Assembly (NCBI GenBank): GCA_001567115.1 | Contig: LMZT01000038.1 | Coordinates: 9,530 to 73,529, forward strand | DNA length: 64,000 nt | Direction of reading: 5' to 3' | DNA from: Candidatus Hinthialibacteria bacterium OLB16 | GTDB lineage: Bacteria > Hinthialibacterota > Hinthialibacteria > OLB16 | Shown here: piece after piece, positions 15,447 through 53,477 of the stretch | How the letters are laid out: every line of letters starts with the position of its first letter | Position numbering within the stretch: position 1 is the stretch's first letter | The notes under the pieces: model-generated | Told to the model about the DNA's origin: nothing | Databases searched by the model: none | What the model saw: the letters and a program-made list of their open reading frames with translations, nothing else | Program-made: the position numbers and the translations under genes

Positions 15447-15462
15447 GTCCCTCAAAAAATAA

Positions 15463-27260: not shown

Positions 27261-29279
27261 TCAACGGAGATCTCCTTCCGGGAAAATGGTTAGCGCAGGT
27301 GGACCTGCTGGCTGTCTTTTCGTTGGTTTCGGAGATTGGGTTCCGGCACGATCCTGGAGCCTCCGATACGCATCGCGGTATTCCCCATTCCGGGGAGCAG
27401 CAGCCTGTGCCTGCTCGAACTGCTCGAGGGCCTCACGAAGATTGCCTGCCAGTTCCAGATCCTTGCCATACAGAAAATGTGTTTGTGCCCTTTCGGGCTG
27501 GATGCGGGCTGATTCTGTCGGAGCCAGAACCAGGGATTCCTCGAAGTGCTGCAAGGCCCCTGCATAATCCCCTGTTTGGCGTAAGGATATGGCCAGATTA
27601 AAGTGCAGAGGTGCATAGGGTGCTGCTTTCTGAATGCCCTCCCGAAACACCTCCAGAGACTCTGCCCACCTCCCCGCTTCCTGAAGCGCTGATCCATAAT
27701 CATTGTAGAGGTCGGCCTGCCCGGGCTTCTGCTCCAGGCAATCCTTGAACTGGGCGATGGCCTCCTCGATCTTCCCATCAGCCGCCAGCGCGATCGCCAG
27801 ATTGCGGTGCGCATTGGTGAATCCGGGATCGATCAGCACCGCTGTGCGCAGATGCTCAAGGGCTTTTGCACGATTCCCCATCTGTGCATGGGCATTTGCC
27901 AGCCCGAAATGAAAGCGTGCCTCCCCGGGCAGGATGCGGAGCCCCTCCTGGTAAGTCCCGACCGCCTCATCAAAACGCCGGGCCTGAAGCAGCGCCTGTC
28001 CGAGATGATCCCGTGGATAATAGGCATCGGGATTCAATAAAACATTGTGTGACCAGAAAGTGACATTGTCCTTGTAGATGCGGCACTGGTTCCAGGTCAA
28101 TCCCAGCAGAATCACACACAGGAGTGTGATGCCGGCCTGCCCAGCCTTCTGGATCCGCAGCGGCGCATTTTTGAGATGCCCCGCACCCAGCACAGCCGCT
28201 CCTGTGAGCGGCAGCGCAGAGGCCAGGTATTGAAAGTGGTCCGCGACAAATGAAAAGCGCTGGAATGAAAAAGGGATGAATCCCAGCGAGGGCAGCAGAA
28301 TCACGATGAATCCAAAAATGACAAACCGCAGGCCACGAACCAGGGGGCTATGGAACCAGCAGAGTGCACCCAGACAGCCGGCAAGGCCGGCCAAAGGGAG
28401 CCAGTCCAGCAGGTTGGAAGGGGCGATCGTCCAATGGGGATAAATCGGCATCAGCTGAAATGGCCAAACCAGTTTGAAGAGATAGAACCAAACCGCATGG
28501 GCCGCGATCAATGTCCGCTGCAGCAGGGTCTCGCTGTATTCTTCTCCAACCGGTAAAGCCACTGTCTGTTCCACATGCCAGTAAATCCCGCCGACCAAAA
28601 CAGCTGCCAGAAGGAATGGGATTGTCTGCACAAAGGCCTTGAGTCTTTCATTTCCTTTCCAGGCTTCGAGCAGAAACAGAAAAAAGGGCACCATGCAGAC
28701 CGAGCTTTTTGCCAGCATGGCCAGAGTAAAAGCGCCCAGGGAAATGGCATAGAAAAACCCACGGCGCGGTTCCTCGCCTGGCCGCTGATATTTGTCCCAG
28801 GCAGAAACGCACACCAGGGAAAACAATCCCGAAAGCACATCCTTTCGCTCGGTGATCCAGGCCACCGACTCCACATGAACTGGATGCAGTGCGAACAGAA
28901 AGGCCGCTGTTGCGGCTCCTGCCAGCCCCAGCCGTCCGGCTATTCCGAGAACCAGAATGGCATTAGCGAGATGCAGAAGGACATTGACCAGGTGATATCC
29001 GAAGGGATGCAGCCCCCACAGCTGGTACTCGGCCCAGAAAGTCGTCATTACCAGAGGGTGATAGGCATAAGCGGTCGGTTCGGTCCACACCCTCCACCAC
29101 CCATCCGGTGATGTGAGTTTCTCGTTCTCAACCACATACAGCCAGTCATCGAAGACATACCCCCCGAGTAATGCCGGTACATAAGCGCACAGAGTTGCCA
29201 GAACCAGGGGGATCAGGATCCCCGAGCCTTTTCCACGGGAGTCCGTCGGGTTCGAAAGGGAGGAAGGAGGGAGAATCAT
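27261..29279 (-). CDS. Polytopic membrane protein with C-terminal TPR repeats (TMTC/PMT_2-like, DUF1736-type putative GT-C glycosyltransferase).
   Basis: N-terminal half with many hydrophobic helices (YVFDDWLYVVENEKL...HPLVMTTFWAEYQLWGLHPFGYHLVNVLLH). C-terminal half with repeated TPR-like units (EAIAQFKDCLEQKPGQADLYNDYGSALQEAGRWAESLEVF...). Start chosen at MILPP, preceded by a GGGAGTGG RBS. Confidence 0.55.
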   Translation of the reverse strand: MILPPSSLSNPTDSRGKGSGILIPLVLATLCAYVPALLGGYVFDDWLYVVENEKLTSPDGWWRVWTEPTAYAYHPLVMTTFWAEYQLWGLHPFGYHLVNVLLHLANAILVLGIAGRLGLAGAATAAFLFALHPVHVESVAWITERKDVLSGLFSLVCVSAWDKYQRPGEEPRRGFFYAISLGAFTLAMLAKSSVCMVPFFLFLLEAWKGNERLKAFVQTIPFLLAAVLVGGIYWHVEQTVALPVGEEYSETLLQRTLIAAHAVWFYLFKLVWPFQLMPIYPHWTIAPSNLLDWLPLAGLAGCLGALCWFHSPLVRGLRFVIFGFIVILLPSLGFIPFSFQRFSFVADHFQYLASALPLTGAAVLGAGHLKNAPLRIQKAGQAGITLLCVILLGLTWNQCRIYKDNVTFWSHNVLLNPDAYYPRDHLGQALLQARRFDEAVGTYQEGLRILPGEARFHFGLANAHAQMGNRAKALEHLRTAVLIDPGFTNAHRNLAIALAADGKIEEAIAQFKDCLEQKPGQADLYNDYGSALQEAGRWAESLEVFREGIQKAAPYAPLHFNLAISLRQTGDYAGALQHFEESLVLAPTESARIQPERAQTHFLYGKDLELAGNLREALEQFEQAQAAAPRNGEYRDAYRRLQDRAGTQSPKPTKRQPAGPPALTIFPEGDLR

Positions 29280-29365
29280 TTTTTGGCCACTCCCCAAAAT
29301 AGATCTGGACAGGAAAACCTGGCATGTATATAGTGCACATATAGTCACTATTACGGGGGTCCAGA

Positions 29366-31840: not shown

Positions 31841-32959
31841 ATGAAAATCACAGGTGTTCATCTCATCCCACTGGTTTACCCGACCCGGGGTCGGTTCAAA
31901 TTTTTTGAAAGCCCCACCGGGAGAACCGGGCGTGCTGCTGTTCTGGTCAAGGTTGCCACGGATGAGGGTCTGGCTGGATGGGGGCAGAGTGTTCCAGTCC
32001 CGCGCTGGAGCTCGGAGACCCTGGAAAGTGCGCTCACCACACTGGAGCGTTACCTCGCCCCTCTCCTGACCGGACAGGATCCCCGCGATATCGAGGCGAT
32101 CCACCACCTGATGAACCGTGAGATTGCTGGCTCTTTTTCCGCCGGTGCTCCTATTACCAAGGCCGGCATCGATCTGGCTCTGCATGATCTGTGGGGGAAG
32201 GCAGAGGGTAGAAACATTCGCGACTGCTGGGGCAGAAAAGGAAAACAAAGCCTCACTGTAAGCTGGACCCTGAATCCCGCATCGCTCGAGGATGTGGAGG
32301 GTATGATTGAGGAAGGGCTTTCGAAAGGTTACCGCCACTTCAATGTGAAAGTGGCTCCGGATCTCAAATTCGACCTGGAATTATGCCGGATCGTTAAAAA
32401 GCGGGTCCCGGATGGCTTTTTATGGTGTGATGCCAATGGGGGGTATGACCTCCCGACCGCGCTGGAGGCGGCTCCATCCCTGGCCGATCTGGGAGTGCCG
32501 GTCCTCGAACAGCCATTGCCAGCCCACCGCCTCAGCGGATACCGCGAGTTATGCCGGCAGGGGGCTTTGCCAATCCTGATGGATGAAGGAGTCGTTTCTC
32601 CGGAGGATCTGCTCGAATTCATCCGGCTTGGCTGTTGCAATGGAGTGGCGATGAAACCGGCCAGGTGCGGGGGGCTTCTTTCAGCACGCCGGCAGGTGGA
32701 AATCCTGCTCAATGAGGGCCTGTTGTTCCTGGGGTCTGGGCTGACCGATCCGGATATCTCTCTGGCAGCGGCCCTCAACCTCTATGCCGCTTATGATCTT
32801 GCATATCCAGCGGCTTTAAATGGCCCGCAGTTCCTCGATGGCAGCCTGCTCAAAAATCCATTCTTGCCCGGGGGGGAGATCCAGGTTCCCCAGGGGCCTG
32901 GGCTTGGGATCGAGGTGGATGAAACAAGGATCGAAGGCCTGCGCGTCAATCTCTTTTAA
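31841..32959 (+). CDS. Enolase-superfamily enzyme, mandelate racemase / muconate lactonizing enzyme (MR/MLE) family.
   Basis: Capping domain (AAVLVKVATDEGLAGWG) and barrel metal ligands (HFNVKVAP...WCDANGGY...LEQPL...MDEG) typical of MR/MLE. Confidence 0.8.
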   Translation: MKITGVHLIPLVYPTRGRFKFFESPTGRTGRAAVLVKVATDEGLAGWGQSVPVPRWSSETLESALTTLERYLAPLLTGQDPRDIEAIHHLMNREIAGSFSAGAPITKAGIDLALHDLWGKAEGRNIRDCWGRKGKQSLTVSWTLNPASLEDVEGMIEEGLSKGYRHFNVKVAPDLKFDLELCRIVKKRVPDGFLWCDANGGYDLPTALEAAPSLADLGVPVLEQPLPAHRLSGYRELCRQGALPILMDEGVVSPEDLLEFIRLGCCNGVAMKPARCGGLLSARRQVEILLNEGLLFLGSGLTDPDISLAAALNLYAAYDLAYPAALNGPQFLDGSLLKNPFLPGGEIQVPQGPGLGIEVDETRIEGLRVNLF

Positions 32960-34209
32960 CCTGCCGAGACACTGCCCCTCGGCTTGAAAATGCGCTTGGT
33001 TTTGTCGTACGCCAGCTGCGCTCCAAGGTGCTGGGATTCGGATGCCAGTGTGGCAACCACCGATTGGGCATACCCGGCTTCGATGGGGGCATTGGTGGCC
33101 GCACGGTTGCGCATGCAGTCGAGGAAGTTTCCCATGTGATTGTCGGATGGCATGTCCTTGATCGGAATGGCTTCGGCCAGTTTGTCTTTCCCGCCTCCAT
33201 CCGGAACCGCTTTCCAGCTGGCGGTGTCAAAGGATCCTTTTGATCCATAGACTATGACCTCGGGGGTGGGGCGCATATTGCCCAGCCGGTTGGAGTACCG
33301 CAGCAAAAACCCTTTTGGAAATTCATACAGGCATTCGATCGTGTCGCAGTGCTCGCGCCCATCCTTCCAAATGTAAATTCCGCCCAGAGCGGTTCCATAG
33401 AGCGGATATGGATCATTCATGAACCAGAGCGCAATATCCATCACATGGCTGCCCAGAAGCCCGGGAAGCCCGCAGGTGTAGTCCCGGAAGAGGTGCCAGC
33501 AACGGTACCTGCGTGGATCGAAAGGCCGATTCGATTGCCCCATCAGATACTGCTCCCAATCGACATCCTCCTGGCGGACATCTGAAAAATCACGCGCCCA
33601 GCGGGGATTGGCATCATGCCAGGCGGTATCGATTTCGGTGATCGTTCCCAGGATTCCGGATTGAATCAGGTCTGCTCCAGCCTTGAATTGCCCTTCGCTG
33701 CGCCGTTGAGTCCCGATCTGCACCACAATGTTGTTATCCTTGACTGTGTCATAAGCCAGCACTGCTTCCTCGAGTGTTCTCGACATCGGCTTTTCACAGT
33801 AGGCGTCTTTTTTGGCCTGGGCCGCAGCGGTCAGTATCGGACAATGGGCATGGTCGGGTGTCGCGATGATCACGCCATCGACATCCGGCCTTGCCAGCAG
33901 CTCCCCATATTTTGAGGTGCTGAATGGAGCCTTCCCGGTCTTTTCCCGTATCCGGGCGGCTGCCTTCTCGAGGTTTGGGCGCCAGACATCACAGACAGCG
34001 GTAATTTCTACCGAGTGGGAATCCGCCAGCTTCTCGATTTCTTCGATATGGTAGGTGCCGCGCCCTCCACACCCGATGATCCCCAGCCGGATCCGCTCGT
34101 TGGCTCCATTGGCGCGAGTCTGCGAAAGCGCCCATCCAGCGAGAGCCGCTCCCGCTGTGCTGGTGAGAAATCCACGGCGTGTTGTCGTTTCACCATTTCC
34201 CTGTGGCAT
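32956..34209 (-). CDS. Tat-exported Gfo/Idh/MocA family oxidoreductase (periplasmic glucose-fructose-oxidoreductase-like).
   Basis: Twin-arginine signal TTRRGFLTSTAGAALAGWALS. Rossmann motif IRLGIIGCGGRG, then EKP motif (AYCEKPMS). Start set at the second ATG, preceded by AAGGGAGGA. The stop codon overlaps the convergent MR/MLE stop by 4 nt. Confidence 0.8.
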   Translation of the reverse strand: MPQGNGETTTRRGFLTSTAGAALAGWALSQTRANGANERIRLGIIGCGGRGTYHIEEIEKLADSHSVEITAVCDVWRPNLEKAAARIREKTGKAPFSTSKYGELLARPDVDGVIIATPDHAHCPILTAAAQAKKDAYCEKPMSRTLEEAVLAYDTVKDNNIVVQIGTQRRSEGQFKAGADLIQSGILGTITEIDTAWHDANPRWARDFSDVRQEDVDWEQYLMGQSNRPFDPRRYRCWHLFRDYTCGLPGLLGSHVMDIALWFMNDPYPLYGTALGGIYIWKDGREHCDTIECLYEFPKGFLLRYSNRLGNMRPTPEVIVYGSKGSFDTASWKAVPDGGGKDKLAEAIPIKDMPSDNHMGNFLDCMRNRAATNAPIEAGYAQSVVATLASESQHLGAQLAYDKTKRIFKPRGSVSAG

Positions 34210-34248
34210 GAGCCTGTCCTCCCTTTTCATGAGATCCCTTTCGGTTGG

Positions 34249-35166
34249 TCACTGATCCGAAAACAGTTTGATTTCGGATTTCTTCCATTTCTGATAAAAG
34301 GCTTCGATGGCTGGCTTGTCCGCACCCGGTGAATGCACCAGGACCAGAAAACGCAGGGTGACATGGTCTCCCTGCCGGTACTGGACTCCCTGAGGTGGCA
34401 GCCAGTACATCGGAGTGGGAGACATGAATCCATAATCTCGTGTGAAAAAGGGCCAGGGATACCCGCACAGGCTGGGGTGCTGGTACAGCGTCAATCCCTC
34501 ATCATGTCCATTGATATTTCCGCTGTAATCGCACCATTCTGCACGGCTCCCGAAGGTTTCGGCTTCTCGTTCGCCTCCGAGGGAATCAGTCAGCATCCCG
34601 CCTCCACGCACTGAAATCTCGGGAATCACCTCTGCAGAAAAAAGGGCATGGTTGGAGGGGAGAATCGTGGTATCCACCTTGAATTCGATATCAAAGATGC
34701 ACTCGATCCATCTGGCGCATTTCTCCGGGGCGGAAATGATGATTGTGCGCGTATCCCGGATCGGTGATGGGCGGCCGGAACACACCCAGTCGCAACGGTC
34801 CTGGATCACAACACGAGCCCCCTGCTCGAGAACCTGCGGCCCGAGTGAAACCTGGCGTCCACGGTCGATGCCTTCCTGCCAGAAATTGCATCCGTTGACC
34901 TGGTCACAGGCCAGGTAAAGCGAGCGATGATGGGGATGGCCGATTCCCTCCTCGATAGTCAGGCTCTCCCCGGATGCGGGCCCGATGATCGGCCAGAGGT
35001 AGGGAAATTTCCAGTTCGATGGAAAACGGTAAGAGGTAAACAGCACACCATCGACAAACACATCGATGCGTTCATCTTCGAGTGTCGTGGTCAGATTGCA
35101 GGCTTCGATTGGCACAGCCAGTAAGAAGCACCCGGCCAGGGAGAGCGTGACCAGGCATCGTTTCAT
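34249..35166 (-). CDS. Secreted lipoprotein of the DUF6807 / PmoA-like family (function unknown; commonly partnered with Gfo/Idh/MocA oxidoreductases).
   Basis: Lipobox MKRCLVTLSLAGC. ~300-aa body. The ATG overlaps the upstream AKR stop (ATGA). 18 nt upstream of the Tat-Gfo/Idh/MocA gene on the same strand. Confidence 0.5.
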   Translation of the reverse strand: MKRCLVTLSLAGCFLLAVPIEACNLTTTLEDERIDVFVDGVLFTSYRFPSNWKFPYLWPIIGPASGESLTIEEGIGHPHHRSLYLACDQVNGCNFWQEGIDRGRQVSLGPQVLEQGARVVIQDRCDWVCSGRPSPIRDTRTIIISAPEKCARWIECIFDIEFKVDTTILPSNHALFSAEVIPEISVRGGGMLTDSLGGEREAETFGSRAEWCDYSGNINGHDEGLTLYQHPSLCGYPWPFFTRDYGFMSPTPMYWLPPQGVQYRQGDHVTLRFLVLVHSPGADKPAIEAFYQKWKKSEIKLFSDQ

Positions 35167-36167
35167 TTCTTTTTGTCCGCCTGCAGAATGGAGTCGATCC
35201 GGGCCAGTTCTTCCTGGGTGAAGGCCAGGTTCTTGAGCGCTGCGACATTCTCTTCGATCTGCTGGACTGTGCTGGCTCCGATCAGAGCCGAAGTCATCCG
35301 CGTGTCTCTCAGCACCCATGCCAGAGCCATCTGAGCCAGGCTCTGCCCTCTGCCCTGGGCAATCTCCTGGAACTGGCGTGCCATTTCGATGCGCTCATCA
35401 GTGACCTGTTCCGGGCGCAGAAAACCATGGGGTTTCCCCGCACGCGAATCCCCCGGAATCCCGCCCAGATAACGGCTGGTGAGCAGCCCCTGGGCAAGCG
35501 GGCAGAAGGCGATGCAGCCGATCCCTTCCTGTCCGAGCACATCCAGCAGGCCTCCTTCGATCCAGCGGTCGAACATGGAATAGGAGGGCTGGTGAATCAG
35601 GCAGGGGGTCCCCAGCCTTTTCAGGATCGACGCAGCCTCAGAAGTCTTCTCGGCTGAGTAGGAGGAAATTCCAGCATAGAGGGCCTTGCCCTGGCGGACC
35701 GCCGCATCCAGTGCGCCCATGGTTTCATCCAGCGGGGTGGTGGGATCGAAACGGTGGGAGTAAAACAGGTCCACATAATCAACTCCCAGACGCCTGAGGC
35801 TCTGGTCCAGGCTGGCCAGCAGGTATTTCCGTGAGCCCCACTCCCCATAAGGGCCGGGCCACATGAAGTAGCCAGCCTTGGTTGAAATGAACAGTTCATC
35901 CCGGTAGGGACCCAGATCCTTTTTCAGAATCCGGCCGAAAGTCTCCTCGGCAGACCCGGCGGGTGGGCCATAGTTATTGGCCAGGTCGAAATGATTGATG
36001 CCCAGGTCGAATGCCCGCAGGCACATCGCACGGCTGTTCTCAAATCGATCGACTTCGCCGAAGTTGTGCCACAGCCCCAGTGAGATCGCCGGCAGCTTGA
36101 CCCCGCTGCGGCCGGAGCGGTTATATTTCATGGAATCGTAACGGTTTGCCGATGGGGTGCAGGCCAT
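35163..36167 (-). CDS. Aldo/keto reductase (Tas/YghZ-like, AKR superfamily).
   Basis: MKYNRSGRSGVKLPAISLGLWHNFG...GINHFDLANNYGPP...LFISTKAG...YVDLFYSHRFD... canonical AKR motifs. Start chosen at the ATG (MACTPS...) preceded by GGGAGGT RBS. The ORF-track N-terminal extension is unlikely. Confidence 0.8.
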   Translation of the reverse strand: MACTPSANRYDSMKYNRSGRSGVKLPAISLGLWHNFGEVDRFENSRAMCLRAFDLGINHFDLANNYGPPAGSAEETFGRILKKDLGPYRDELFISTKAGYFMWPGPYGEWGSRKYLLASLDQSLRRLGVDYVDLFYSHRFDPTTPLDETMGALDAAVRQGKALYAGISSYSAEKTSEAASILKRLGTPCLIHQPSYSMFDRWIEGGLLDVLGQEGIGCIAFCPLAQGLLTSRYLGGIPGDSRAGKPHGFLRPEQVTDERIEMARQFQEIAQGRGQSLAQMALAWVLRDTRMTSALIGASTVQQIEENVAALKNLAFTQEELARIDSILQADKKK

Positions 36168-36361
36168 TTGTTTACCTCCCGCAAGTGAGAGACCAACAAT
36201 AGCACAGACAGCAGCCGCGATCCTATCCGCTCTTTTTCTTCGAAGATAAAGGATCGACAGCTGTGTGAAGTTATATTGAACCCGCTCCCACCCGCCCGGA
36301 AAAGGCAGGCGGGCCAGCGGGTTCATTCAACCTTTAGAGAATTCCGATGCCGCCGCTCTTC

Positions 36362-39300
36362 TTACGAGCAACCGGTCGTTCCACCGCAGGAGGTACATTT
36401 CAGGCAGGTCCCATTCCTTACCATTGTGAACTGCCCGCAGATCGCGCAGGGGTCGCCCTCAAATCCCTTGAGGCGTGCTTCGGCGACACGGCGGTGCCAG
36501 TTGAGCACATCCTCTTTTTCGCTGGCCGCCACACTGGCAGACAAGGCTGTGGCGGATCCATGCGCTGCCTCGACTGAATGGCCATGGCCATTTTTCCCAT
36601 TCCCATTGCCATAAATCAGGCTGCTGCCATTGGCTGGTTCAGCGGCGGTCCCTGGCTGGAAATGGCTGGAGTGGCGGTGCTGGGGGCCGGGGTAAAAAGG
36701 GGAATCGGAGGGAACCATGCGTTCTTCGACAATCTCTTCATCATCGAAAGCCGGCTCGTCATCCGGGCGCCCGAGCGTGTCTCCGCGCAAATCTTCCGGT
36801 TTCACCTGCGCCAGATCGAAACGATCCAGATAAGAAATCGCCAGCTCGCGGAAAATGTAGTCGATCACCGAAGTGCTCATCTTGATATAGGAGTGGCCAT
36901 CCACCCCGCCATTCGGCTCGAAACGGGTGAACACAAAGGCATCGACAAACTCATCGAGCGGAACTCCATACTGAAGCCCCAGCGAAACGGCAATCGCAAA
37001 ACAGTTCATCAGGCTGCGGAAAGCGGCCCCTTCTTTGTGCATGTCAACGAAGATCTCCCCGAGGTTCCCATCGGTGAATTCTCCGGTGCGGAGGTAAACC
37101 TTGTGCCCTCCGACACGCGCTTTCTGGGTGTACCCGGTGCGGCGGTGGGGAAGCCTGCGCCGTTTGGCGAGATACCGGAACACAACACGTTCCGCAATCT
37201 CCTGGGCAGGAGTCTCTGCTTTTGACTCGGTCCATTCGTCATCTTCGAGCAGCTCAGCGGATTGGGCGCTCAATGGCTGGCTGAGCTTGGAACCATCACG
37301 GTACAGTGCGATCGCTTTGATCATCAGTGTCCAGCTCTTGTCATAGGCAGCGCGGACATCCTCCACACTGGCCTGGCTGGGCATGTTGATAGTTTTCGAG
37401 ATCGCTCCGGAAATAAAATGGCTGTGCGGCGGCCATCATGCGCAGGTGGCCTTCCGGAGCGATATAGCGCCGCCCTTTCCGTCCGCAGGGGCTGGCACAA
37501 TCAAACACCGGCAGATGCTCCGGCAGGAGGTGTGGCGCTCCTTCGAGTGTCATCCTTCCGCAGATGGCTTCGTTGGCCTCCTGGATTTCCGTTTCAGTGA
37601 ACCCAAGTTCTTCGAGCAGGTCGAAAGACTGCCCTAACAGGCGCTCCTCGGGAATTCCCAGATGATTCCGGCAGAAATCCTCACCGACTGTGTAGCGGGT
37701 AAACACATAGCGAATATCGAAGGCCGACCTCACCTCCGCTTCGAGGCGTTCCAGGACTTCCTCTGTAAAACCTTTCTCGACCAGTGTATTACGGTTAATC
37801 GGCGTGGGATTGTTGAGAGAGGCTGTCCCGACCAGGTATTCCACCATTTCATCGATCTGCGCATCCGCATACCCAAGGCGATGCAATGCGAGGGGCACGG
37901 ACTGGTTTGCGATCCGGAAATACCCTCCGCCGGCCAGTTTTTTGAATTTCACCAGCGCATAATCCGGCTCGATTCCTGTTGTGTCGCAATCCATCACCAG
38001 GCTGATGGTTCCTGTCGGAGCCAGCACAGTCACCTGGGCGTTGTGGTACCCATATCTCTCGCCGAGATCCAATGCCTGATCCCAGGTTTCACGCGCTGCG
38101 CGCAGAAAATCCTCCGGGCAGATTTCCGGATTGATCGCACAGGGGAAAACAGACAGGCCCTCATATTCATCCTTGGGCGCATTGTATGCCGCACGGCGGT
38201 GGTTCCGGATGACCCGCAGCATGTGCTCCCGGTTCCTGTGGTATCCCGGGAAGGGGCCGAGTTTGTGGGCCATCGCAGCGGAGGTGGCATAGGCTTCTCC
38301 GGTCATCACCGAAGTCACCGCGCCTGTGAGGGCGGCTGCTTCCGGGGAATCGTATGGAATCCCCATCACCATCAGCAGGGTGCCAAGGTTGGCATACCCC
38401 AGCCCGAGTGTTCTGAACTCATAGCTCAACCGGGCGATGGATTGTGATGGAAACTGCGCCATCAGCACCGAAATCTCCAGCGTCATGGTCCACAGGCGGC
38501 AGGCATGACGGAACCCCTCGATATCGAACTTCCCGCTATCGGTATCGTAAAAGGTCATCAGGTTCAATGAGGCGAGATTGCAGGCGGTATCATCGAGGAA
38601 CATGTACTCCGAGCAGGGATTGGAGGCATTGATGCGGCCGTCGGCCGGGCAGGTGTGCCACTCGTTGATGGTCGAATCAAATTGAATGCCGGGATCGGCG
38701 CAGGCCCAGGCGGCATAAGCCACCTGGTTCCAGAGGTCACGCGCGCGGATCGATTTGCTGATCTTCCCATCGGTGCGGCGGGTGAGATTCCACATTCCAT
38801 CCTCTTGAACCGCATGCATGAAATCATTCGTGATGCGCACCGAATTATTGGAATTCTGTCCGGAAACTGTGGCGTAGCCTTCCGATTCCCAATCCGTGGT
38901 GATGTTGGCGAATTCGATCCCGGTGTACCCCTGGGAGGCCAGCTGGATGGCGCGTTGAATATAATTGCCTGGCACCTCATGGAGCCGTGCGGACCGGATC
39001 GAAAGGGCCAGCTCCCGGTTCTTTTTGGCTGGAAACGGTCTTCGCCCTTGAGATTGATATTGGCGAAGCAGGCCTGCATGATGGCGTTCATGTGGTGGCT
39101 GCAGATGCGGCTGCCGGTCACCATGGAGGCCACTTTCTGTTCCTCGCGCACCTTCCAGTTGATGAAGTCCTCGATGTCCGGGTGGTCGATATTGACGACC
39201 ACCATTTTGGCGGCCCGGCGTGTGGTGCCACCGGATTTGATCGCTCCGGCGGAACGGTCGCCGATGCGCAGGAAGCTCATCAATCCCGAGCTTCTCCCGC

Positions 39301-40042
39301 CGCCGGACAGCGATTCGCCGACCCCGCGGATGTCCGAAAAATTCGAGCCTGTTCCTGAACCATATTTGAACAGCCGGGCTTCACGCACCCACAGATCCAT
39401 GATCCCGCCTTCACCCACCAGGTCATCGGCGACCGACTGAATGAAGCAGGCATGTGGCTGTGGCCGCTCGTAAGCGTTGGTCGAACGCATCACCTGGCTG
39501 GTGCGCGATTCGACATAGTAATGCCCCTGGGGCGGCCCTTCGATGCCATAAGCCCAGTGCAGTCCGGTATTGAACCACTGCGGAGAGTTGGGAGCTGCCA
39601 TCTGGGCTGCGAGCGAATAACGCATTTCATCGAAATAGGCGCGCGCATCTTCCTCGCTGCAGAAATATCCGTGTTTCCAGCCCCAATAGGTCCAGCAGCC
39701 AGCCAGGCGGTCAAATACATCCCGGCCATCACGCTCTCCGCCGTAACGTTCCTCCGGGGGGAGTTTTTCGAGGGCTTCTTCATCCGCCACCCGCCGCTGC
39801 AGCCACTGCGGGACCCCTGTCTCCTGAATGTGGCGCAGCCGGGTGGGAACTCCGGCTTTGCGGCAGTATTTCTGGGCCAGGATATCTGTCGCCACCTGGG
39901 ACCATTTCTTCGGCACCTGGATGTCCGGCGCTTCGAAAACCACCGTTCCATCTGTGTTCGTGATTCGCGATACGCGTGGCCCGAACTCGAGCGTATCGTA
40001 TGGATTCGTTCCCGCTTGTGTGAATCTTCTTTCGATTTTCAT
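36362..40042 (-). CDS. nrdJ: Adenosylcobalamin-dependent (class II) ribonucleotide reductase NrdJ. It is split into three ORF-track fragments by two apparent homopolymer frameshifts (~39020-39032 and ~37412-37422).
   Basis: N fragment [59 protein letters not shown] (classic NrdJ start, GGGAGG RBS). Middle fragment [20 protein letters not shown]...[29 protein letters not shown] fragment [20 protein letters not shown]...ALYRDGSK plus a terminal CxxC...CxxC zinc ribbon. The junctions read continuously after single-base correction in a T5 and a T4 run. Confidence 0.85.
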
Positions 40043-40158
40043 CTTTCCGCTCCCTCCCCGCGTCATCCCCGTTGTGACGAGCGCTCCTTGACTGAATATA
40101 GGCGGGCTTCGGCGTTTGATTTCATGAGCACACGATTTCATTCAAGTGTTACAGACTT

Positions 40159-40181
40159 TTACACTGTCTGTTCACCCAGCA
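40159..40181. promoter_or_regulatory. Inverted repeat ACAGACttttacactGTCTGT about 120 nt upstream of the nrdJ start; candidate operator.
   Basis: Read directly in the 540-nt divergent intergenic region between nrdJ and the SAT-like gene. It does not match the canonical NrdR box well. Confidence 0.2.
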
Positions 40182-40580
40182 TTCTGACAAGAAGGCAGAA
40201 ATTTTCGGGATTCTCCCCCCGAACCTTCCCTGATAAGCCCTGTGTGTCCCTAAGAATTTTACGCCAAAGCAGGACCAGATATCAACGACATCTAGTAGTA
40301 AGATCGGCACTGTAGCCCAATATCTTGATGTTTTCAAGTAAAATCTCGCTGAATCCTGGAAGTATTTTTTCCCCCTCACCCAAGTTCAGAGTTCAGAGGG
40401 GCTTAGCCTGCAGGCCTGTTTCCTCTCCCACTTTTCATCCACAAAGAGGCAACAGCCATGTAACAGGTTGAGCACAGGTCTTTCGCGGAAAACGCATCAT
40501 TCCCTCCAGGGTTGGGTCTCTTGACCCATGAACGAAACCTCCGATACTGCTGCTATACTGAAGGGAGGATTTGTTCATCG

Positions 40581-41858
40581 ATGGCAAGCGTTCCGCTCCA
40601 CTCAAGCCGGGTTGTCTCCAGGGGAAACGATAAGTTTCTTCAGCGGATCGTCTGTCAACTCGATGAAACCTACTCCCCCGAAGACCGTTCACGGTACACC
40701 CCCCCGGGCTTTGACCCCTCGTGGCATGGCCTGCGTGTCGGGACCGGTTCCGCCTCCTGGCAGGCAGTCGCCGGAATTGTCGAGGCCATTCAGGAAGCGG
40801 TCATGCCCGGCCTGTTTGTGGCTTCCTCAATACAACCACCGGATCGGATCGACCTCCACAACGAGCTCGAACGCCTGATTCCTCCCCTCCAATCCATTCT
40901 GCAGAGTTTTTTTCAGGTCGAGCTCGAGGATGCCACCAGCCGGGAATATGCCCATCTGGCTGCGCTGAACCTGATCGCCCATCTTCCTGCATTCCGCAGG
41001 CGTGCGCTCTGGAATGTGTTTGCCTCTCTCAAGGATCCGGCTCTGTGGGATGCTTTTCTGCTGCGGAATGAAGCACGCCGTGAGGACCTCGGAAATCTGG
41101 ATCTGCTGGCCGCCATCGACCAGGCGATCTATTCACGAAGGCAGGAGGATTACCTCGGCTTCCTCAGGGAGCATGGGTTTGAATACGCATTCTCTTACCA
41201 GCGCCGCCTGGTCAAACGCTCTTATCCCGGCTGGAAAGCCCTGCTGCTGCATGATATCGCCCATACGCTTGCCCTCGGGGGTTTCATCGAGGACCTGGAT
41301 CAGCAGGCCCCGCCGACTCCTTTTCTCCCGAGAGTCATCGCCGAATACGCCGCCAGCCTCTACCAGACTGACATGCACCCGGAAACAGTCATCGGGGATG
41401 CCACCTTCCTCGAGCACCCGCATCGCGGCATTACCACCGGCCAGACCGGACGGATCGGGGTGGGTTGTGTGATTTACCCCTGCACTCTGGGCGGGATTAC
41501 CGACAAGGTGAAACCACGCCATCCCCTGATCGGTGATTTCGTTCTGATCGGAACAGATGTGGGCATCTTCGGGCCGGTCGTGGTTTCAAATGGGTCCGTG
41601 ATCGGGGCGAACACCGAAATCAATGGCCTGATCGAAATTCACGAACGGGTGCGGATCCGTGCGGCTGTCGTGGCGCGGACTGTCATTTCCGAAAGCGGCA
41701 AACCGGGACGAATTGTCTTCGGTGAAGGTGTTACCGTCGGCGAAGAGTGCCTGGTCATCAATGATCAACCGGCTGACCTGGTCATTCCACCCGGGGCGAA
41801 CCTGCCGGCTGGCTCCCATGTGGTCAATGATGGAAATGGCGGGATGAGAATCCTCTGA
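40581..41858 (+). CDS. Hexapeptide-repeat acyltransferase of the serine O-acetyltransferase (CysE) type with an unusually long (~290 aa) N-terminal helical extension.
   Basis: C-terminal region ETVIGDATFLEHPHRGITTGQTGRIGVGCVIYPCTLGGITDKVKPRHPLIGDFVLIGTDVGIFGPVVVSNGSVIGANTEI parallels the SAT catalytic beta-helix (IHPGA..IDHG.GVVIGETA...GVTLGG...RHPT). Start chosen at ATG 40581, 11 nt after GGGAGG. Confidence 0.5.
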   Translation: MASVPLHSSRVVSRGNDKFLQRIVCQLDETYSPEDRSRYTPPGFDPSWHGLRVGTGSASWQAVAGIVEAIQEAVMPGLFVASSIQPPDRIDLHNELERLIPPLQSILQSFFQVELEDATSREYAHLAALNLIAHLPAFRRRALWNVFASLKDPALWDAFLLRNEARREDLGNLDLLAAIDQAIYSRRQEDYLGFLREHGFEYAFSYQRRLVKRSYPGWKALLLHDIAHTLALGGFIEDLDQQAPPTPFLPRVIAEYAASLYQTDMHPETVIGDATFLEHPHRGITTGQTGRIGVGCVIYPCTLGGITDKVKPRHPLIGDFVLIGTDVGIFGPVVVSNGSVIGANTEINGLIEIHERVRIRAAVVARTVISESGKPGRIVFGEGVTVGEECLVINDQPADLVIPPGANLPAGSHVVNDGNGGMRIL

Positions 41859-41885
41859 CTCCCATCCCCTCCCTGTTATCATCTC

Positions 41886-43305
41886 TCAACGTTTCTTTTT
41901 CTTCGCCGGCTTGCGTGTGAGGTTTGGCTGGGTCATGGCGATCGGGTCGAGCACCTCTTTGAGCTGCTCCCGGGAAAGGTATCCCTGTTCGAGAATCACC
42001 TCCGGGATCGGTTTGCGTGTCTTCAGGCTTTCCTTGACCACTGCTGCAGCCTTGTCATAGCCAATATAAGGATTCAGGGCGGTGGCGATGCTGGGGCTGT
42101 TTTCGACATACCAGCGGCACCTCTCCACATTGGCGGTGATGCCATCCACACATTTGCGTGCCAGATGGAGCGCCGCCTGAGTCAGGATATCCAGCGATTC
42201 GAGCAGGTTCGATCCCAGCACCGGCATGTGCGTATTCAGCTCCAGCTGTCCGGCGGCCGCAGCCGCAGAAACTGCCGCATCATTGCCGATCACCTGGATG
42301 CACACCATGTTGACCGCTTCGCAGATGGATGGATTGATCTTCCCAGGCATGATCGAAGAACCCGGCTCGACCGCAGGCAGGGAAATTTCATTCAGTCCGG
42401 TGTTCGGGCCTGAAACCATCAGCCGCAGGTCATTGCACAGCTTTCCGATGTCGATGGCGGTGAGGCGCAGCACGGCGGAGAGATGCGCCATGTCCGTCAG
42501 GTACTGCGTGGTCTCCATCGGATCGGCAGGCACCTCATACTTCCGCCCGGTTATTTTCGAAAGGTGCTTCATGATCAATGGCCGAAATTCGGCATAAGTG
42601 TTCAATCCGGTTCCGATGGCGTTCCCTCCCACTCCCAGGCAGCGCAGGAATTTGTCGGTGTCCCGGATGCGCTCGAGGTCCTTTTTCAGGGCCGATGCAT
42701 GGGCCTGAAAGGCCTGGCCGAGTGTGACTGGAACCGCATCCTGCAGGTGGGTGCGGCCGCTTTTCACAATGCGCTTGAACTGGCGGGCCTTTTTTCTCCA
42801 GCGATCCGACCAGGGCCTTGAGCGCATCCAGCAGGCCTTTGGAAAGATCCAGTCCCGCCACACGTATCGAGGAGGGGAATACATTGTTCGTGGACTGCCC
42901 CTTGTTGACATCATCGTTGGGATGGACCAGTCCTCGATCTCCGCGTTTGCCACCCATCCTTTCAGCGGCACGGTACGCTATGACTTCATTGATGTTCATG
43001 TTGCTTGAAGTTCCGGATCCCGCCTGGAAAATATCCAGCGGCAGGGCTTCATGATGCTTTCCTTCCGCGATCTCTTTGCAGGCTGCGATGATCGCTTCCC
43101 CTTTCTTCTTATCGAGGATTCCGAGCTCCATGTTGGCCAGCGCGCAGGCCTGCTTGATCTGTGCGAGAGCGCGAATCTGGGCAGTGTGAAGCCGGCGGCT
43201 GCTGATCTCAAAGTTGTGGATCGAGCGCTGTGTGTGAACTCCGTAAAGGGCATTAGCGGGAACCTGAAGCTCTCCGAGTGAATCCTTTTCGATTCGTGTG
43301 GCCAT
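41886..43305 (-). CDS. fumC: Class II fumarate hydratase (FumC), split into two ORF-track fragments by an apparent extra base in an A6 run (+ strand T6 at 42790-42795).
   Basis: MATRIEKDSLGELQVPANALYGVHTQRS...VHPNDDVNKGQSTNNVFPSS in fragment 1. KSGRTHLQDAVPVTLGQ...GSSIMPGKINPSICEAVNMVCIQVIGND...LNPYIGYDKAA in fragment 2. The junction LVGSLEKK|ARQFKRIV is restored by reading A5. Confidence 0.85.
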
Positions 43306-43515
43306 GAAGAATCCTCCGAGTGTGTTTGGGGCCTGTTGCGGCAGACCGATGAGGTCATCTCCAGGGAATTCAATTCACCCGATGGCTCTCAATCCCCTGA
43401 AGGTGAACCCACATTAACGGGGGAGTGTATTTCTGTCCAGAAGTAGGGGCGCCACGGGTGGCGCCCAAAATTCTTTTCGTGCCCGAAACCCCGATCACAA
43501 TTCGGAGTGCCACTG

Positions 43516-43540
43516 GATTCCCGCTTTCGCGGGAATGACG
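43516..43540. repeat. REP-like palindromic element GGATTCCCGCtttcGCGGGAATGACG, followed by three imperfect tandem GGGAATGACGATGR units.
   Basis: Near-identical to the 27191-27216 copy. Generates the spurious ORF MPLDSRFRGNDD (43507-43689). Confidence 0.55.
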
Positions 43541-43585
43541 ATGAAGGGAATGACGATGGAGGGACCGCGAATGACGGAGAAGGCC

Positions 43586-43620
43586 GTCATCCCCGGCTCG
43601 ACCGGGGATCCAGACTGGAT
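43586..43620. repeat. Second palindromic unit GTCATCCCCGGctcgaCCGGGGATCCAGACTGGAT in the same intergenic repeat cluster.
   Basis: TCCCCGG/CCGGGGA inverted repeat. Shares GTCAT and CTGGATTC flanks with the other copies. Confidence 0.4.
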
Positions 43621-45386: not shown

Positions 45387-45463
45387 GGGCGCTTAGCTCA
45401 GCTGGCTAGAGTACTTCCTTGACATGGAAGGGGTCACTGGTTCAAGTCCAGTAGCGCCCACCA
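45387..45463 (+). tRNA. tRNA-Val (anticodon GAC), CCA encoded.
   Basis: Cloverleaf read by eye. Acceptor GGGCGCT/AGCGCCC, D arm GCTC-AGCTGGCTA-GAGT, anticodon arm CTTCC-TTGACAT-GGAAG, T arm ACTGG-TTCAAGT-CCAGT, discriminator A plus CCA. Confidence 0.85.
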
Positions 45464-45597
45464 CGAATCCCCGGAGCATCCAACACCCATTTCCTGCCTC
45501 CGTGGGCCGGGAACGGGTTCTTTGTTTTCCTCCCGGCTTTCAGGATGATGGATCCAATGAGTTTCCGGGCGAATTTCGTGCCAGGAAACTGTTAATT

Positions 45598-47580
45598 ATG
45601 GCAAGTGAACCAACAGTCCAGAACATGATCTCACTCACACTGCCGGATGGTTCGATCCGTGAAGTGGCCGAGGGGACGACCGGTCTGCAGTTTGCCCAGT
45701 CGATTGGCAAACGGCTGGCGGGGGATGCCCTTGCGATTTCGCTGAATGGGCGAACCACCGACCTGAATATCCCATTGACCGCCTCTTCCGAAATCAGAAT
45801 CCTGACTTTCAAGGATCCGGAGGGGCGTGCGGTATTGCGCCATAGCTGCGGTCATGTCATGGCGCAGGCGGTGATGGATCTCTTCCCGGGCGCCGCGCCT
45901 GCCGCCGGTGATTGGGCTGATGAACGCTACTTTTATGATTTCCAGGTTTCACGCCCGTTTACTGCAGAGGATCTCCAGAAGATCGAGCAACGGATGACGG
46001 AAATCTGCCAGGCGGATGTTCCATTCAAACGAATGGAGCTCCCCGCCGATCAGGCCCTTCAGGCACTGGGTTCCACACGCAACCTTTTCAAGGAAGAGAT
46101 TATCGGTGACCTGGCTGGCCAGGGCCAGGTGATCTCCTGCTACAGCCAGGGAGACTGGGTGGATCTGTGCCTGGGAGCGCATGTCCCTTCCACTGGAAAA
46201 ATCGCCGCCTTCAAGCTGCTCATGACCGCCGGAGCCTACTGGCATGGCGATGAATCCAATCCGCAGCTCCAGCGGATCTACCTGACTGCTTTCCCTTCCC
46301 GGAAAGAGCTGGATGAATACCTCTCTCAGATCGAGGAAGCGAAAAAGAGGGATCACCGCAAACTCGGGCAGGAACTCGACCTGTTCACCATCTCCAGCGA
46401 TGTCGGCAGCGGCCTGGTGCTCTGGATGCCGAAAGGGGCGGCACTCAGGTTTGAACTCGAAACCTTTCTTCGCGGAAAACTGGTCGAATATGGTTATCAG
46501 ACAGTCTATACCCCCCATATCGGGAAGCTGGACCTGTACCGGACCAGCGGCCATTTCCCTTATTACAAAGATTCTCAGTTCCCTCCCATTCACATGAATG
46601 AACATGGGGCCGAGGCAGAAGACTCCGAGGAGGGGTATCTGCTCAAACCGATGAACTGCCCGCATCATATCAAAATCTACGAAGCCACCCCGAAAAGCTA
46701 CCGGGATCTCCCCTATCGCCTGGCGGAGTTCGGCACTGTCTACCGTTACGAGCAGTCGGGAGAACTTTCCGGCATGACTCGAGTGCGTGGATTCACCCAG
46801 GACGATGCGCATCTTTTTGTCACGCCCGACCAGCTCGAAGAGGAGCTGCAACGGACAGTCGATCTGGTTTTGTTTATCCTGCGCAGCCTGGATTTCAAGG
46901 ATTACCGGATTCGCTTCGGCAAACGGGATCCCCAGAGTGAGAAGTTTGGCGGTTCAGCCGGCCTCTGGGACCGTGCGGAATCCAATATCCGCAATGTGCT
47001 GCGCGGAATGAATATGGATTTCTCTGAAGAAGCGGGTGAAGCCGCTTTTTATGGGCCGAAAATTGACTTCGTGGTGCGCGACTGCCTGAACCGTGAATGG
47101 CAGCTCGGCACAGTCCAGGTGGACTATGTGCTGCCGGAACGTTTTGATCTGAAGTATATCGGTTCGGATGGAAGCCCGCATCGCCCGATCATGATCCATC
47201 GTGCCCCATTCGGTTCGCTCGAGCGGTTTGTCGGCATCCTGATCGAACATTTCGCCGGGGCTTTTCCAGCCTGGCTGGCGCCGGTCCAGGTCCGGATCCT
47301 GCCGGTTGTCGATGAGGTTTTACCCTATGCTGAAAAAGTGTATGCTGCCTGCCGCGCACATGGATTCCGGACCGAACTGGATTCACGCGCTGAAAAAATC
47401 GGTTATAAGATCCGTGCCGCTGAAACTGAAAAGGTTCCTTTCATGCTGGTTGTTGGCCGAAGGGAAGCCGAAAGCGGTTCGGTTTCACTCAGGAAAAGGA
47501 CCCAGGGAGATCTGGGAACCCTTCCTTTGGAAGAAACTATAGGTAAACTTCGCGGGGAGCTGGCCAGGCCAGCCGAATGA
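45598..47580 (+). CDS. thrS: Threonyl-tRNA synthetase.
   Basis: N-terminal TGS domain (MISLTLPDGSIREVAEGTTGLQFAQSIG). Class II aaRS core (HIGKLDLYRTSGHFPYY, RVRGFTQDDAHLF). C-terminal anticodon-binding domain. The ORF-track start at 45424 runs through the tRNA and is rejected. Confidence 0.85.
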   Translation: MASEPTVQNMISLTLPDGSIREVAEGTTGLQFAQSIGKRLAGDALAISLNGRTTDLNIPLTASSEIRILTFKDPEGRAVLRHSCGHVMAQAVMDLFPGAAPAAGDWADERYFYDFQVSRPFTAEDLQKIEQRMTEICQADVPFKRMELPADQALQALGSTRNLFKEEIIGDLAGQGQVISCYSQGDWVDLCLGAHVPSTGKIAAFKLLMTAGAYWHGDESNPQLQRIYLTAFPSRKELDEYLSQIEEAKKRDHRKLGQELDLFTISSDVGSGLVLWMPKGAALRFELETFLRGKLVEYGYQTVYTPHIGKLDLYRTSGHFPYYKDSQFPPIHMNEHGAEAEDSEEGYLLKPMNCPHHIKIYEATPKSYRDLPYRLAEFGTVYRYEQSGELSGMTRVRGFTQDDAHLFVTPDQLEEELQRTVDLVLFILRSLDFKDYRIRFGKRDPQSEKFGGSAGLWDRAESNIRNVLRGMNMDFSEEAGEAAFYGPKIDFVVRDCLNREWQLGTVQVDYVLPERFDLKYIGSDGSPHRPIMIHRAPFGSLERFVGILIEHFAGAFPAWLAPVQVRILPVVDEVLPYAEKVYAACRAHGFRTELDSRAEKIGYKIRAAETEKVPFMLVVGRREAESGSVSLRKRTQGDLGTLPLEETIGKLRGELARPAE

Positions 47581-47628: not shown

Positions 47629-48250
47629 GTGCAGGGGAAAATTCCCAAACCCAAAGACCGGATCAACTATGACATCCGCGAGTCCGAGGTTCGTCTGGTC
47701 GATGAAAATGGCCAGCATGTCGGGGTGATCAACACCCAGGAAGCCATCCGGCGGGCCGAAGCGGCGGGTCTGGATCTGGTGGAAGTATCTTCTGCTTCAA
47801 GACCGTATGTCTGCCGCATCATGGACTACGGCAACTATAAGTATGAACAGGCCAAGAAGCAGAAAGATGCGCGCCGGAAACAGCATGTCATTGATGTCAA
47901 AGAGGTGAAATTGCGGCCACGAATCGACGAGCACGATTATGAGGTTAAAATGAGGAATGCCCGCAAATTCATCCTGCAGAACGACAAAGTGAAATTCGTG
48001 GTCATGTTCCGGGGTCGTGAACGGAACCATTCGGAATTCGGAACGAAACTCCTCTCCCGGGTGATCGAAGAACTTCAGTCGATCGCCATTGTGGAATCCC
48101 GCCCCCAGTCGGAAGGGCGAAACCTGATCATGGTGCTCGCTCCGGATCCCGCGGGAGTGAAAGCCGAAAAGGCCAGGCTGGAGAAACTTAAAAAACTGGA
48201 GGAAAAGGAGGCCGCATCAAGCGCTGCTTCCCCCCAAAAGGAGTTCATAA
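47629..48250 (+). CDS. infC: Translation initiation factor IF-3. In the assembly it reads through, in frame, into rpmI (see findings). True start codon uncertain; non-canonical starts are usual for infC.
   Basis: KDRINYDIRESEVRLVDENGQHVGVINTQEAIRRAEAAGLDLVEVSSASRPYVCRIMDYGNYKYE...FRGRERNHSEFGTKLLSRVIEEL...IMVLAP. Confidence 0.8.
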
Positions 48251-48444
48251 TGAACAAGATGAAGACTCAACGGAGCGCAGCGAAGCGGTTTTCGCTGACA
48301 AAGAAGGGTAAGATCAAACGATCCAAGGCCTATCACAGCCACCTTCTGACTTCGAAAAACACCAAACGGAAACGCGGCCTGCGCAAGGCTACGTATATCT
48401 CCCCTTCGGATGAGGGGCGGGTCCGCCGCATGTTGGGATTGTAA
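48250..48444 (+). CDS. rpmI: 50S ribosomal protein L35.
   Basis: MNKMKTQRSAAKRFSLTKKGKIKRSKAYHSHLLTSKNTKRKRGLRKATYISPSDEGRVRRMLGL. Own RBS AAGGAG 7 nt upstream of the ATG. Confidence 0.8.
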   Translation: MNKMKTQRSAAKRFSLTKKGKIKRSKAYHSHLLTSKNTKRKRGLRKATYISPSDEGRVRRMLGL

Positions 48445-52376: not shown

Positions 52377-53421
52377 ATCTTCCTCTGATGAAAGGACACC
52401 AATCTGTGGCCCGTTATTTCCTTACCCTCATGGCGGTTTTCCTCCTGTTTCTTCAGGGGTGTACGACTGAACCTTCCAGCCCACCGCCGCCAGCCGGCCA
52501 GGAGCCGAAAACAGGTGGTTCGTCTTTATCGGATACCGCTTCCCAGGCGCCCAAGCCAGCACCTCCAGTCAAAAACCTTTACGATGAAAAAGCGGATGCC
52601 TCCAGACAGGTCGCCGATGCCCTTCACGAAGCCCGCCAGGACCATAAGCATGTCCTCATCCAGTGGGGTGGCAACTGGTGCCCCTGGTGCTTCAAACTCC
52701 ATGCAGTGCTCGAGTCGGATCGCAGCCTGCGGGGCCTTCTCCGCGCTGAATATGTCTATGTGCCCATCGAGAGCAAGAATGTGGATTTGGCGGCCTCCTA
52801 TAAGGCCCCGGTCAACAGTGTCCCCTTCCTGACTGTGCTCGATGCCGATAATAAAGTGCTGGCCAACCAGCCCACCGATCCTCTCGAGGATGGCGACCAT
52901 TATGATGCGGCCAAAGTCAAAGCCTTCCTCGAGCAGTGGAAGCCAGCCCCTCTCGATGCGGAGCAGCTGCTGGCGGCTGCACTCGGACAGGCACGCAAAG
53001 ACCAGCGCTCGATCCTGATTCACTTCGGCGCGCCTGGTGCATCTGGTGCAAGCGCTTCGATCGCTTTCTCAGCCGGGAGGATATCCAGCCGCTGATCTCT
53101 CCGGATTTCATCAACCTCAAAATCGATATCGAACGCATGGCTGGTGGAGAAAAGGTCTACCGGCAGGTTCGCAAACAGGGGCAGGGAATCCCCTGGTTTG
53201 CCATCCTCGATGCCAATGGTGAGGCTGTTTCCACCTCGGATGCTCCCGCTGGGAATATCGGATTCCCCATCAGCCCGGGTGGCATCGATCACTTCCTGGG
53301 AATGTTAGGTTCTTCGGCTCACCATCTCTCCAACGAGGGAAAAGGGAAAATCCAGGCGGCGCTTCAGGCGGAGGCAGATCAGGTTCTCACCTCCATGCGC
53401 ACCTCCGGAAGACCCAACTGA
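52361..53421 (+). CDS. Lipoprotein with two thioredoxin-like domains (WCPWC and WCIWC CxxC motifs; TlpA/DUF255-like thiol:disulfide oxidoreductase), interrupted by an apparent C2/C3 homopolymer indel near 53031-53036.
   Basis: Lipobox LFLQGC. Domain 1 HVLIQWGGNWCPWCFKLH. After the frame switch, domain 2 ILIHFGAP|WCIWCKRFDRF repeats the same pattern. The two ORF-track pieces 52361-53095 and 52936-53421 join once one C is added. Confidence 0.65.
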
Positions 53422-53477
53422 GCGACCCTGGCCCGAGGGGGAGCTCGACCCCGGTCTGTCTTCCCTGTTACGGCTGA

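Follow-up and report, generated by a model that had tools for sequence, protein, structure and literature searches.

A cysteine-rich domain (CRD) of 150–220 amino acids (aa), which has six conserved cysteines at its end, is found in most non-monomeric class II ribonucleotide reductases (RNRs), where it acts as a zinc-binding mediator of re-reduction (Loderer et al., 2017; PMC5704485), and in Pseudomonas aeruginosa this domain is encoded separately as NrdJb (PMC5704485). The present work concerns nrdJ, the gene for a class II, adenosylcobalamin-dependent RNR, in a 64,000-nucleotide (nt) stretch of contig LMZT01000038.1 from the draft genome of Candidatus Hinthialibacteria bacterium OLB16 (hereafter the window, numbered from its first letter), in which the gene as deposited is divided among three open reading frames (ORFs). 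Our analyses make it very probable that this division stems from homopolymer errors of Ion Torrent sequencing that remain in the OLB16 draft and is not a biological feature. The evidence for this interpretation comes from the reconstruction of the gene, from its comparison with nearly identical strains, and from the distribution of similar defects across the remainder of the window.

The minus-strand ORFs 38564–40141, 37341–38975, and 36362–37384 are successive pieces of a single NrdJ, in a match that is far beyond chance. In a six-frame translation of positions 36301–40200 the NrdJ-like sequence is continuous but switches frame twice (2 to 1 to 2), and the ORFs overlap one another out of frame by 412 and 44 nt. 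The addition of one A at the first junction and the removal of one T at the second yield a single ORF that begins MKIERRF at position 40042, and the complete nrdJ gene thus occupies positions 36362–40042 of the minus strand and encodes 1226 aa after these two 1-nt corrections. An initial annotation of this DNA had assigned the three ORFs to a single NrdJ of about 1225 aa, and the reconstruction agrees with it except that the true length is greater by one residue. The alignment to RNR profiles that the initial annotation had proposed for the corrected translation gave an end-to-end match to the NCBIfam model NF005736 (residues 1–1226 on model positions 1–1222 of 1222; 2010.6 bits against a cut-off of 1737) together with the Pfam architecture PF08471, PF02867, and PF12637. 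Two of the three fragments were found in GenBank by exact look-up, viz. KXK38557.1 (340 aa) and KXK38558.1 (544 aa), both of which are entered as “Vitamin B12-dependent ribonucleotide reductase.”

The domains of the corrected protein, all on the minus strand, comprise a Ribonuc_red_2_N domain (PF08471; residues 31–147, positions 39602–39952), the RNR barrel domain (PF02867; residues 198–734, positions 37842–39451), and a TSCPD domain (PF12637; residues 971–1068, positions 36839–37132), which belongs to the C-terminal CRD region. The final 28 residues (positions 36365–36448) form a six-cysteine tail, CAIC...CLKCTSC...GC, which corresponds to the zinc-binding end of the class II CRD and whose pattern, CxxC-x11-CxxCxxC-x5-C, is present in 120/120 of the top homologues. 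The tail, its presence in all of these homologues, and the published description of the CRD (PMC5704485) substantiate the earlier assignment of the C-terminus to a class II cysteine-rich zinc domain. On these grounds the locus is one ordinary predicted gene for a class II, B12-dependent RNR with a cysteine-rich zinc domain.

Both junctions lie, as had been claimed, within short homopolymer runs. The first is a sense-strand A5 run (T5 on the plus strand; positions 39022–39026, minus strand), which is one base short of the A6 run of the relatives described below. Within the minus-strand sequence CCAAAAAG the protein reads ...GEDRFQPK and then KNRELALS in the next frame, so that the frame as deposited leaves ...DRFQPK for the out-of-frame RTGSW..., and the catalytic barrel domain is interrupted. 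The second junction is a sense-strand T4 run (A4 on the plus strand; positions 37415–37418, minus strand), which is one base longer than the T3 run of the relatives, and the frame returns there after ...RMMAAAQPF, within the minus-strand sequence CCATTTTATT. This junction directly precedes a conserved barrel motif, ∼85 residues upstream of the TSCPD/CRD region, and conserved motif residues are lost from both products.

A protein search identified an intact NrdJ of 1226 aa (P0001) that is 99% identical to the query at 100% coverage and that belongs to a cluster of 23 members, mainly proteins of 1226 aa. The loci that encode P0001 number eight and are syntenic (L081–L088; one NCBI metagenome-assembled genome (MAG) and seven Logan assemblies of separate runs), and seven further loci (L097–L103) were reached via a neighbouring gene of 425 aa. 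The DNA of these 15 loci is 98.8–99.5% identical to the window, and NrdJ is intact in all of them that cover the gene. The first junction has A6 in 12/12 of the covering assemblies (L081–L088 and L097–L100), and the second has T3 in 9/9 (L081–L088 and L098). The near-identical strains were recovered by the protein search and by contig look-ups, and a scan of genome contigs yielded only more distant relatives (best identity 58–65%, from many phyla), which aligned over residues 1–1226 with no break seen; 120/120 of the more distant NrdJ homologues are single proteins. A single uninterrupted frame is therefore found in every covering relative of ∼99% identity and is lacking only in nrdJ as deposited, a failure that we attribute to sequence error. 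Of the nrdJ substitutions that are private to the window in comparison with the eight P0001-encoding loci, 26/35 are synonymous; the remaining nine are conservative, and several of them also occur in other members of the cluster. Because the private substitutions are mostly synonymous and the rest conservative, nrdJ has been subject to purifying selection.

Similar defects are distributed across the whole of the window. A self-trained codon-usage frame plot and the reading of ORFs, followed by alignment of window positions 4383–63420 (∼59 kb) to 16 related loci (L081–L096), have identified ten 1-nt indels that occur in the window and in none of these relatives, every one of which lies in a homopolymer context. 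Eight of these indels are deletions and two are insertions, and 8/10 are coding, close to the share that the coding density (by our own estimate about nine-tenths of the window) predicts without selective removal. Besides nrdJ, five further genes are broken in this manner, all of which are intact in the relatives. In the gene for an AcrB-like transporter (9384–12503, plus strand; 1041 aa in relatives), an A6 run at 9384–9389, four codons into the gene (MLKKL...), replaces an A7 run (4/4 relatives). The gene for a GH43-like secreted protein (18285–20260, plus strand; 653 aa in relatives) is split into ORFs 18285–18725 and 18491–20260 by a G at position 18552 where the relatives have GG (5/5). 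In the fumarate hydratase/aspartate ammonia-lyase gene fumC/aspA (41886–43305, minus strand; 472 aa), a sense-strand A6 run at 42790–42795 stands for A5 (10/10 relatives), and the gene is split into ORFs 42535–43305 and 41886–42971. A gene for a double thioredoxin-like protein (52361–53421, plus strand; 353 aa) is split at its second WCxWC motif by CC at 53033–53034 in place of CCC (2/2 relatives). Lastly, the gene for a giant Big_13-type adhesin-like protein (54703–64000, plus strand; >4388 aa in the relative L096) is split by a G at position 58315 where L096 has GG, giving ORF 54703–58452 and an ORF that leaves the window, in agreement with a frame switch at about 58320 in the frame plot. 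After correction the gene lengths equal those called in the relatives (1041, 648/653, 472, 353, and 1226 aa for the AcrB-like, GH43-like, fumC, thioredoxin-like, and nrdJ genes, respectively). The three remaining indels comprise an intergenic A6 run at 15454–15459 (plus strand; A7 in 6/6 relatives), a sense-strand A6 run at 29279–29284 (minus strand; A7 in 2/2 relatives) directly 5′ of the start codon of a TPR protein gene, and a C6 run at 48230–48235 (plus strand) in the non-conserved 3′ tail of infC, where the tract of relatives measures 7 nt (C7 or CCCCTCC) or is C8.

The frequency of these discordances in length rises steeply with the length of the run, from ∼1e-4 for runs of 1–2 nt, 2/2191 for 3-mers, and 0/567 for 4-mers to 1/180 for 5-mers, 1/45 for 6-mers, and 3/12 for 7-mers. 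The 16 related loci, which differ by up to ∼1.2% substitutions, served as a control: compared with one another in 45 pairs, they showed zero net frame-changing indels, and the window compared with each of the 16 relatives contained 1.3–4.4 such indels per 10 kb. Where the strains genuinely differ in length, the difference preserves the frame (3, 6, or 18 nt) or is offset within a few bases. Among the relatives themselves, disagreement is confined to the infC tract. Since the window carries about one indel per 6 kb, the occurrence of two in nrdJ is unremarkable: in a gene of 3.7 kb ∼0.6 would be expected, with a probability of two or more of about 0.1–0.2.

The origin of the assembly bears directly on the interpretation of these indels. 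The GenBank neighbours KXK38562.1, KXK38565.1, and KXK38572.1 are likewise entered under OLB16, on a contig of 90,124 bp, with locus tags of the form UZ16_OP3.... A single “OP3” (Omnitrophica) bin, LMZT00000000, was reported from the Olburgen partial-nitritation/anammox reactor (Speth et al., 2016), and OLB16 has been described as a MAG from a reactor of this kind that was earlier placed in Omnitrophota (PMC9324843). The locus-tag prefix, the name, and the existence of only one OP3 bin provide strong grounds to infer that OLB16 is that bin. The data of that study were produced solely by Ion Torrent PGM sequencing (400-bp kit) and assembled with CLC, and its authors report persistent frameshifts (Speth et al., 2016). 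In the explanation that we favor, the deposited sequence would miscount two homopolymers, giving A5 for a true A6 and T4 for a true T3; Ion Torrent chemistry, which gauges the length of a homopolymer by signal intensity, would have left length-dependent 1-nt indels in the consensus, and the same error process would have given the at least eight further 1-nt indels in the window. In the organism, nrdJ would then be translated as one polypeptide, as presumably occurs in all of the near-identical strains. The presence of similar breaks in other genes of the window, in an assembly made from Ion Torrent data only, renders sequencing error the leading explanation over pseudogenization. An error process also fits better than real mutation because the indels are private, restricted to homopolymers, dependent on run length, and deletion-heavy (8:2), because their coding share follows the coding density, and because both the platform and the problem are documented.

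Several observations weigh against this explanation. The step that it takes beyond the data is to place the fault in the reads and not in the DNA, and the judgment was made from assembled sequences and not from read pile-ups. A change from T3 to T4 involves a short run for an Ion Torrent error that must be carried by the majority of reads. An intact, corrected NrdJ of the OLB16 haplotype is absent, by exact look-up, from a collection of 15 billion proteins, and the intact FumC, GH43-like, and AcrB-like proteins of this haplotype similarly have no exact match in that collection. The corrected thioredoxin-like protein has an exact match in the Logan assembly of SRR17665585, the only one found among the corrected proteins that were looked up. 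The N-terminal fragments of NrdJ and FumC also gave no match by exact look-up, which probably reflects different calls of the gene start and is uninformative.

The most important of the contrary observations is the Logan assembly of a second data set, SRR29904083, where the genes called on three short contigs (corresponding to window positions of about 32789–38003, 40647–43539, and 51146–53703) repeat three of the frameshifts in the window. The evidence from this assembly consists of called gene structures and proteins only. On one contig a partial ORF of 220 aa overlaps by 44 nt an ORF of 340 aa that is identical to the C-terminal NrdJ fragment of the window, and this gene structure implies the extra base of the second junction. 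The thioredoxin-like gene is called as two genes of 229 and 94 aa, and the C-terminal fragment of fumC starts with the out-of-frame leader MRSRPWSDRWRKK. All three of these frameshifted genes match the exact protein haplotype of OLB16. Because the C-terminal NrdJ haplotype of OLB16 was not seen among the members of the P0001 cluster that were compared, SRR29904083 comprises the same strain or derived data. Of the dozens of data sets with this species, only these two showed the exact OLB16 strain, and a common origin of the OLB16 record and SRR29904083 is thereby suggested. No paper that mentions SRR29904083 was found in the literature, and the ends of its contigs do not fall at long homopolymers, an observation that is uninformative with regard to platform. 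If SRR29904083 consists of Ion Torrent data, or was obtained from the sample or assembly of OLB16, the question is unaffected by it; should it prove to be independent and from Illumina, the frameshifts would be real in the strain. It is the sole result able to overturn the verdict of an artefact. In view of the suggested common origin, and of an Ion Torrent error load that explains both the number and the type of the indels, our high degree of confidence in an artefact is retained.

Among the other explanations, the one that survives best, although we regard it as unlikely, is that the frameshifts are real: slippage at homopolymers in the OLB16 lineage, for example as a bioreactor lineage deficient in mismatch repair, would recently have turned nrdJ, along with fumC, the thioredoxin-like gene, and further genes, into pseudogenes, and the cell would depend on another RNR. 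One-nt indels do arise naturally by slippage in homopolymers, an essential role has been demonstrated for none of the broken genes, the indel of infC falls in a non-conserved tail that varies among the relatives themselves, and the frameshifts repeated in SRR29904083 occur there with the same protein haplotype. Against this, ten indels in 59 kb, when extrapolated, would leave ∼15% of the genes broken, yet they are accompanied by no premature stops created by substitution and by no larger deletions; the eight of ten that are coding show no sign of counter-selection, the 16 related loci of similar divergence contain none, and the substitutions in nrdJ are mainly synonymous. Two independent indels in a gene that is otherwise still perfectly conserved are also unlikely for a gene that has recently become dispensable and are expected for random errors, and the platform of the assembly is documented to yield such a pattern. 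The narrower proposition that at least the extra T of the second junction and the frameshifts in fumC and the thioredoxin-like gene are real in the OLB16 strain, on account of their recurrence in SRR29904083, appears to us slightly less probable still. If it were true, it would mean that an abundant bacterium of anammox granules carries a freshly inactivated nrdJ and many other genes frameshifted at homopolymers, and would suggest a lineage that is a hypermutator or in decay, or else dependence on a different RNR or on ribosomal slippage at a low level.

An explanation in which the shifts are decoded by the cell, viz. by programmed ribosomal frameshifts (−1 on A_AAA_AG and +1 on UUU_U) or by transcriptional slippage, so that the restoration of NrdJ serves as regulation, is one to which we give scarcely any credence. 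The P-site tRNA could re-pair perfectly at both junctions (AAA to AAA and UUU to UUU), and A_AAA_AG is similar to the slippery lysine context of the dnaX type. Such sites should however be conserved, and the presence of the uninterrupted frame in all 12 and all 9 of the near-identical relatives that cover the two junctions effectively refutes recoding, as does the encoding of all 120 more distant homologues as single proteins. No stimulatory element was seen, although none was sought; runs of A5 and T4 are too short for efficient transcriptional slippage, and two inefficient events in series would give a negligible yield. It is equally hard to believe that the locus encodes a naturally split enzyme of the NrdJa plus NrdJb type of P. 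aeruginosa, here in three parts, even though split class II RNRs with a separate gene for the CRD exist (PMC5704485) and the third ORF has an ATG of its own. The ORFs overlap out of frame, the relatives are unsplit, and the junctions lie in the catalytic barrel and at a conserved motif, neither of them at the boundary between core and CRD; the view of the initial annotation that the split is not a natural one is thus upheld. A phase-variable contingency locus is rejected, as the nrdJ tracts are invariant among the relatives and measure only 5–6 and 3–4 nt, and phase-variable homopolymer tracts are usually 7 nt or longer.

With sequencing error as the preferred explanation, there is nothing biologically new for ribonucleotide reductases at the nrdJ locus, and the main value of these results is as a flag on the quality of the data for OLB16, the genome after which a candidate phylum (OLB16, Ca. 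Hinthialibacterota) is named. The window contains ∼1 homopolymer frameshift per 6 kb, which by extrapolation amounts to several hundred broken genes across the genome. Inferences regarding gene content or pseudogenes that are drawn from OLB16 (e.g., “no functional RNR,” “no fumarase,” or calls of auxotrophy) would accordingly be wrong. For this species, assemblies of better quality are available (e.g., GCA_023150685.1 and GCA_045863435.1); they are preferable, and inferences of gene content from OLB16 should be cross-checked against them.

Some other features of the window and its relatives were also noted. The nrdJ gene is preceded by about 470–540 nt of apparently non-coding sequence (5′ region 40043–40580). 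No riboswitch or other RNA family was found near nrdJ in searches against Rfam, which covered the whole window at the gathering thresholds and positions 39900–40700 at E≤1; this includes the cobalamin riboswitch, of which the 5′ region shows no match at E≤1. The only Rfam hit in the window is a tRNA gene (RF00005, 64.6 bits; 45387–45460, plus strand), which overlaps the 5′ end of the longest ORF for threonyl-tRNA synthetase (45424–47580; 718 aa). The corresponding gene in L081 and L097 is annotated with a product of 660 aa that starts downstream, and this downstream start is probably the true one.

The poly-C tract at 48230–48235 lies a short way upstream of the Shine-Dalgarno sequence and ATG of rpmI, and it varies among assemblies that are ∼99% identical, as was seen by comparing the window with L081 (about 1700–1712), L096 (about 4712–4722), and L104. 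With the C6 of the window, translation initiation factor IF-3 is fused in frame to ribosomal protein L35 in an ORF of 271 aa (47629–48444), which is annotated as IF-3 (KXK38565.1); C7 or CCCCTCC gives an IF-3 of 227 aa that overlaps rpmI by 62 nt, and C8 gives an IF-3 of 207 aa that ends just before rpmI. Because the relatives differ at this tract, the true C-terminus of IF-3 in the species is uncertain, and the tract may be genuinely prone to slippage or hard to sequence on several platforms. A reading of the infC frameshift as a broken essential gene was withdrawn, as the indel lies in the non-conserved tail after the IF3_C domain and the relatives vary there.

Two repeats contribute to differences in length between strains. 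A 15-nt tandem repeat, CATCGTCATTCCCTT, lies between fumC and an AMP-binding gene (window 43531–43586; L081 6355–6513); its copy number is 2.3 for the window and 3.9 for L081, with a difference in length of ∼100 nt between the strains, and several Logan contigs terminate at this intergenic repeat. A CATGAC hexamer repeat (7948–7966) in a CusB-like gene (7561–9366) shows in-frame variation in copy number (6 and 18 nt). The CusB-like gene of another MAG, L092 (3112–4975; GCA_009612915.1, WBZO01000766.1), is called as two ORFs of 216 and 412 aa, and in the other relatives it is one gene of 598–607 aa. When indels were counted, none with a net effect on the frame separated L092 from the other relatives, and the split in L092 could be due to a substitution that created a stop or to a break between alignment blocks.

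The locus can finally be compared with three known systems. The error of Ion Torrent and 454-type sequencing at homopolymers (Bragg et al., 2013, cited by Speth et al., 2016) resembles what is observed in the window in that it is also of 1 nt, confined to homopolymers, and dependent on run length, and further in that the indels are private to one assembly and occur in coding and non-coding DNA alike; the window departs from the typical pattern in that some of the affected runs are short (G/GG, CC/CCC, and T3/T4) and in that a second data set shares three of the frameshifts. With the split NrdJa and NrdJb of P. aeruginosa, the window has in common a class II RNR that extends over more than one ORF, with the CRD in the C-terminal piece. 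The split in P. aeruginosa is however conserved, lies at the boundary between core and CRD, and gives two functional polypeptides (Torrents et al., 2005; Crona et al., 2015, cited in PMC5704485), whereas the breaks in the window are frameshifts within conserved catalytic sequence that are absent from the relatives. The closest likeness is to the long form of NrdJ (NF005736/PRK07562), from which nrdJ of the window differs in no biological respect and only by the lengths of two homopolymers, each by 1 nt, and with which the corrected protein shares the full-length match to the model, the Pfam architecture, and the six-cysteine tail.

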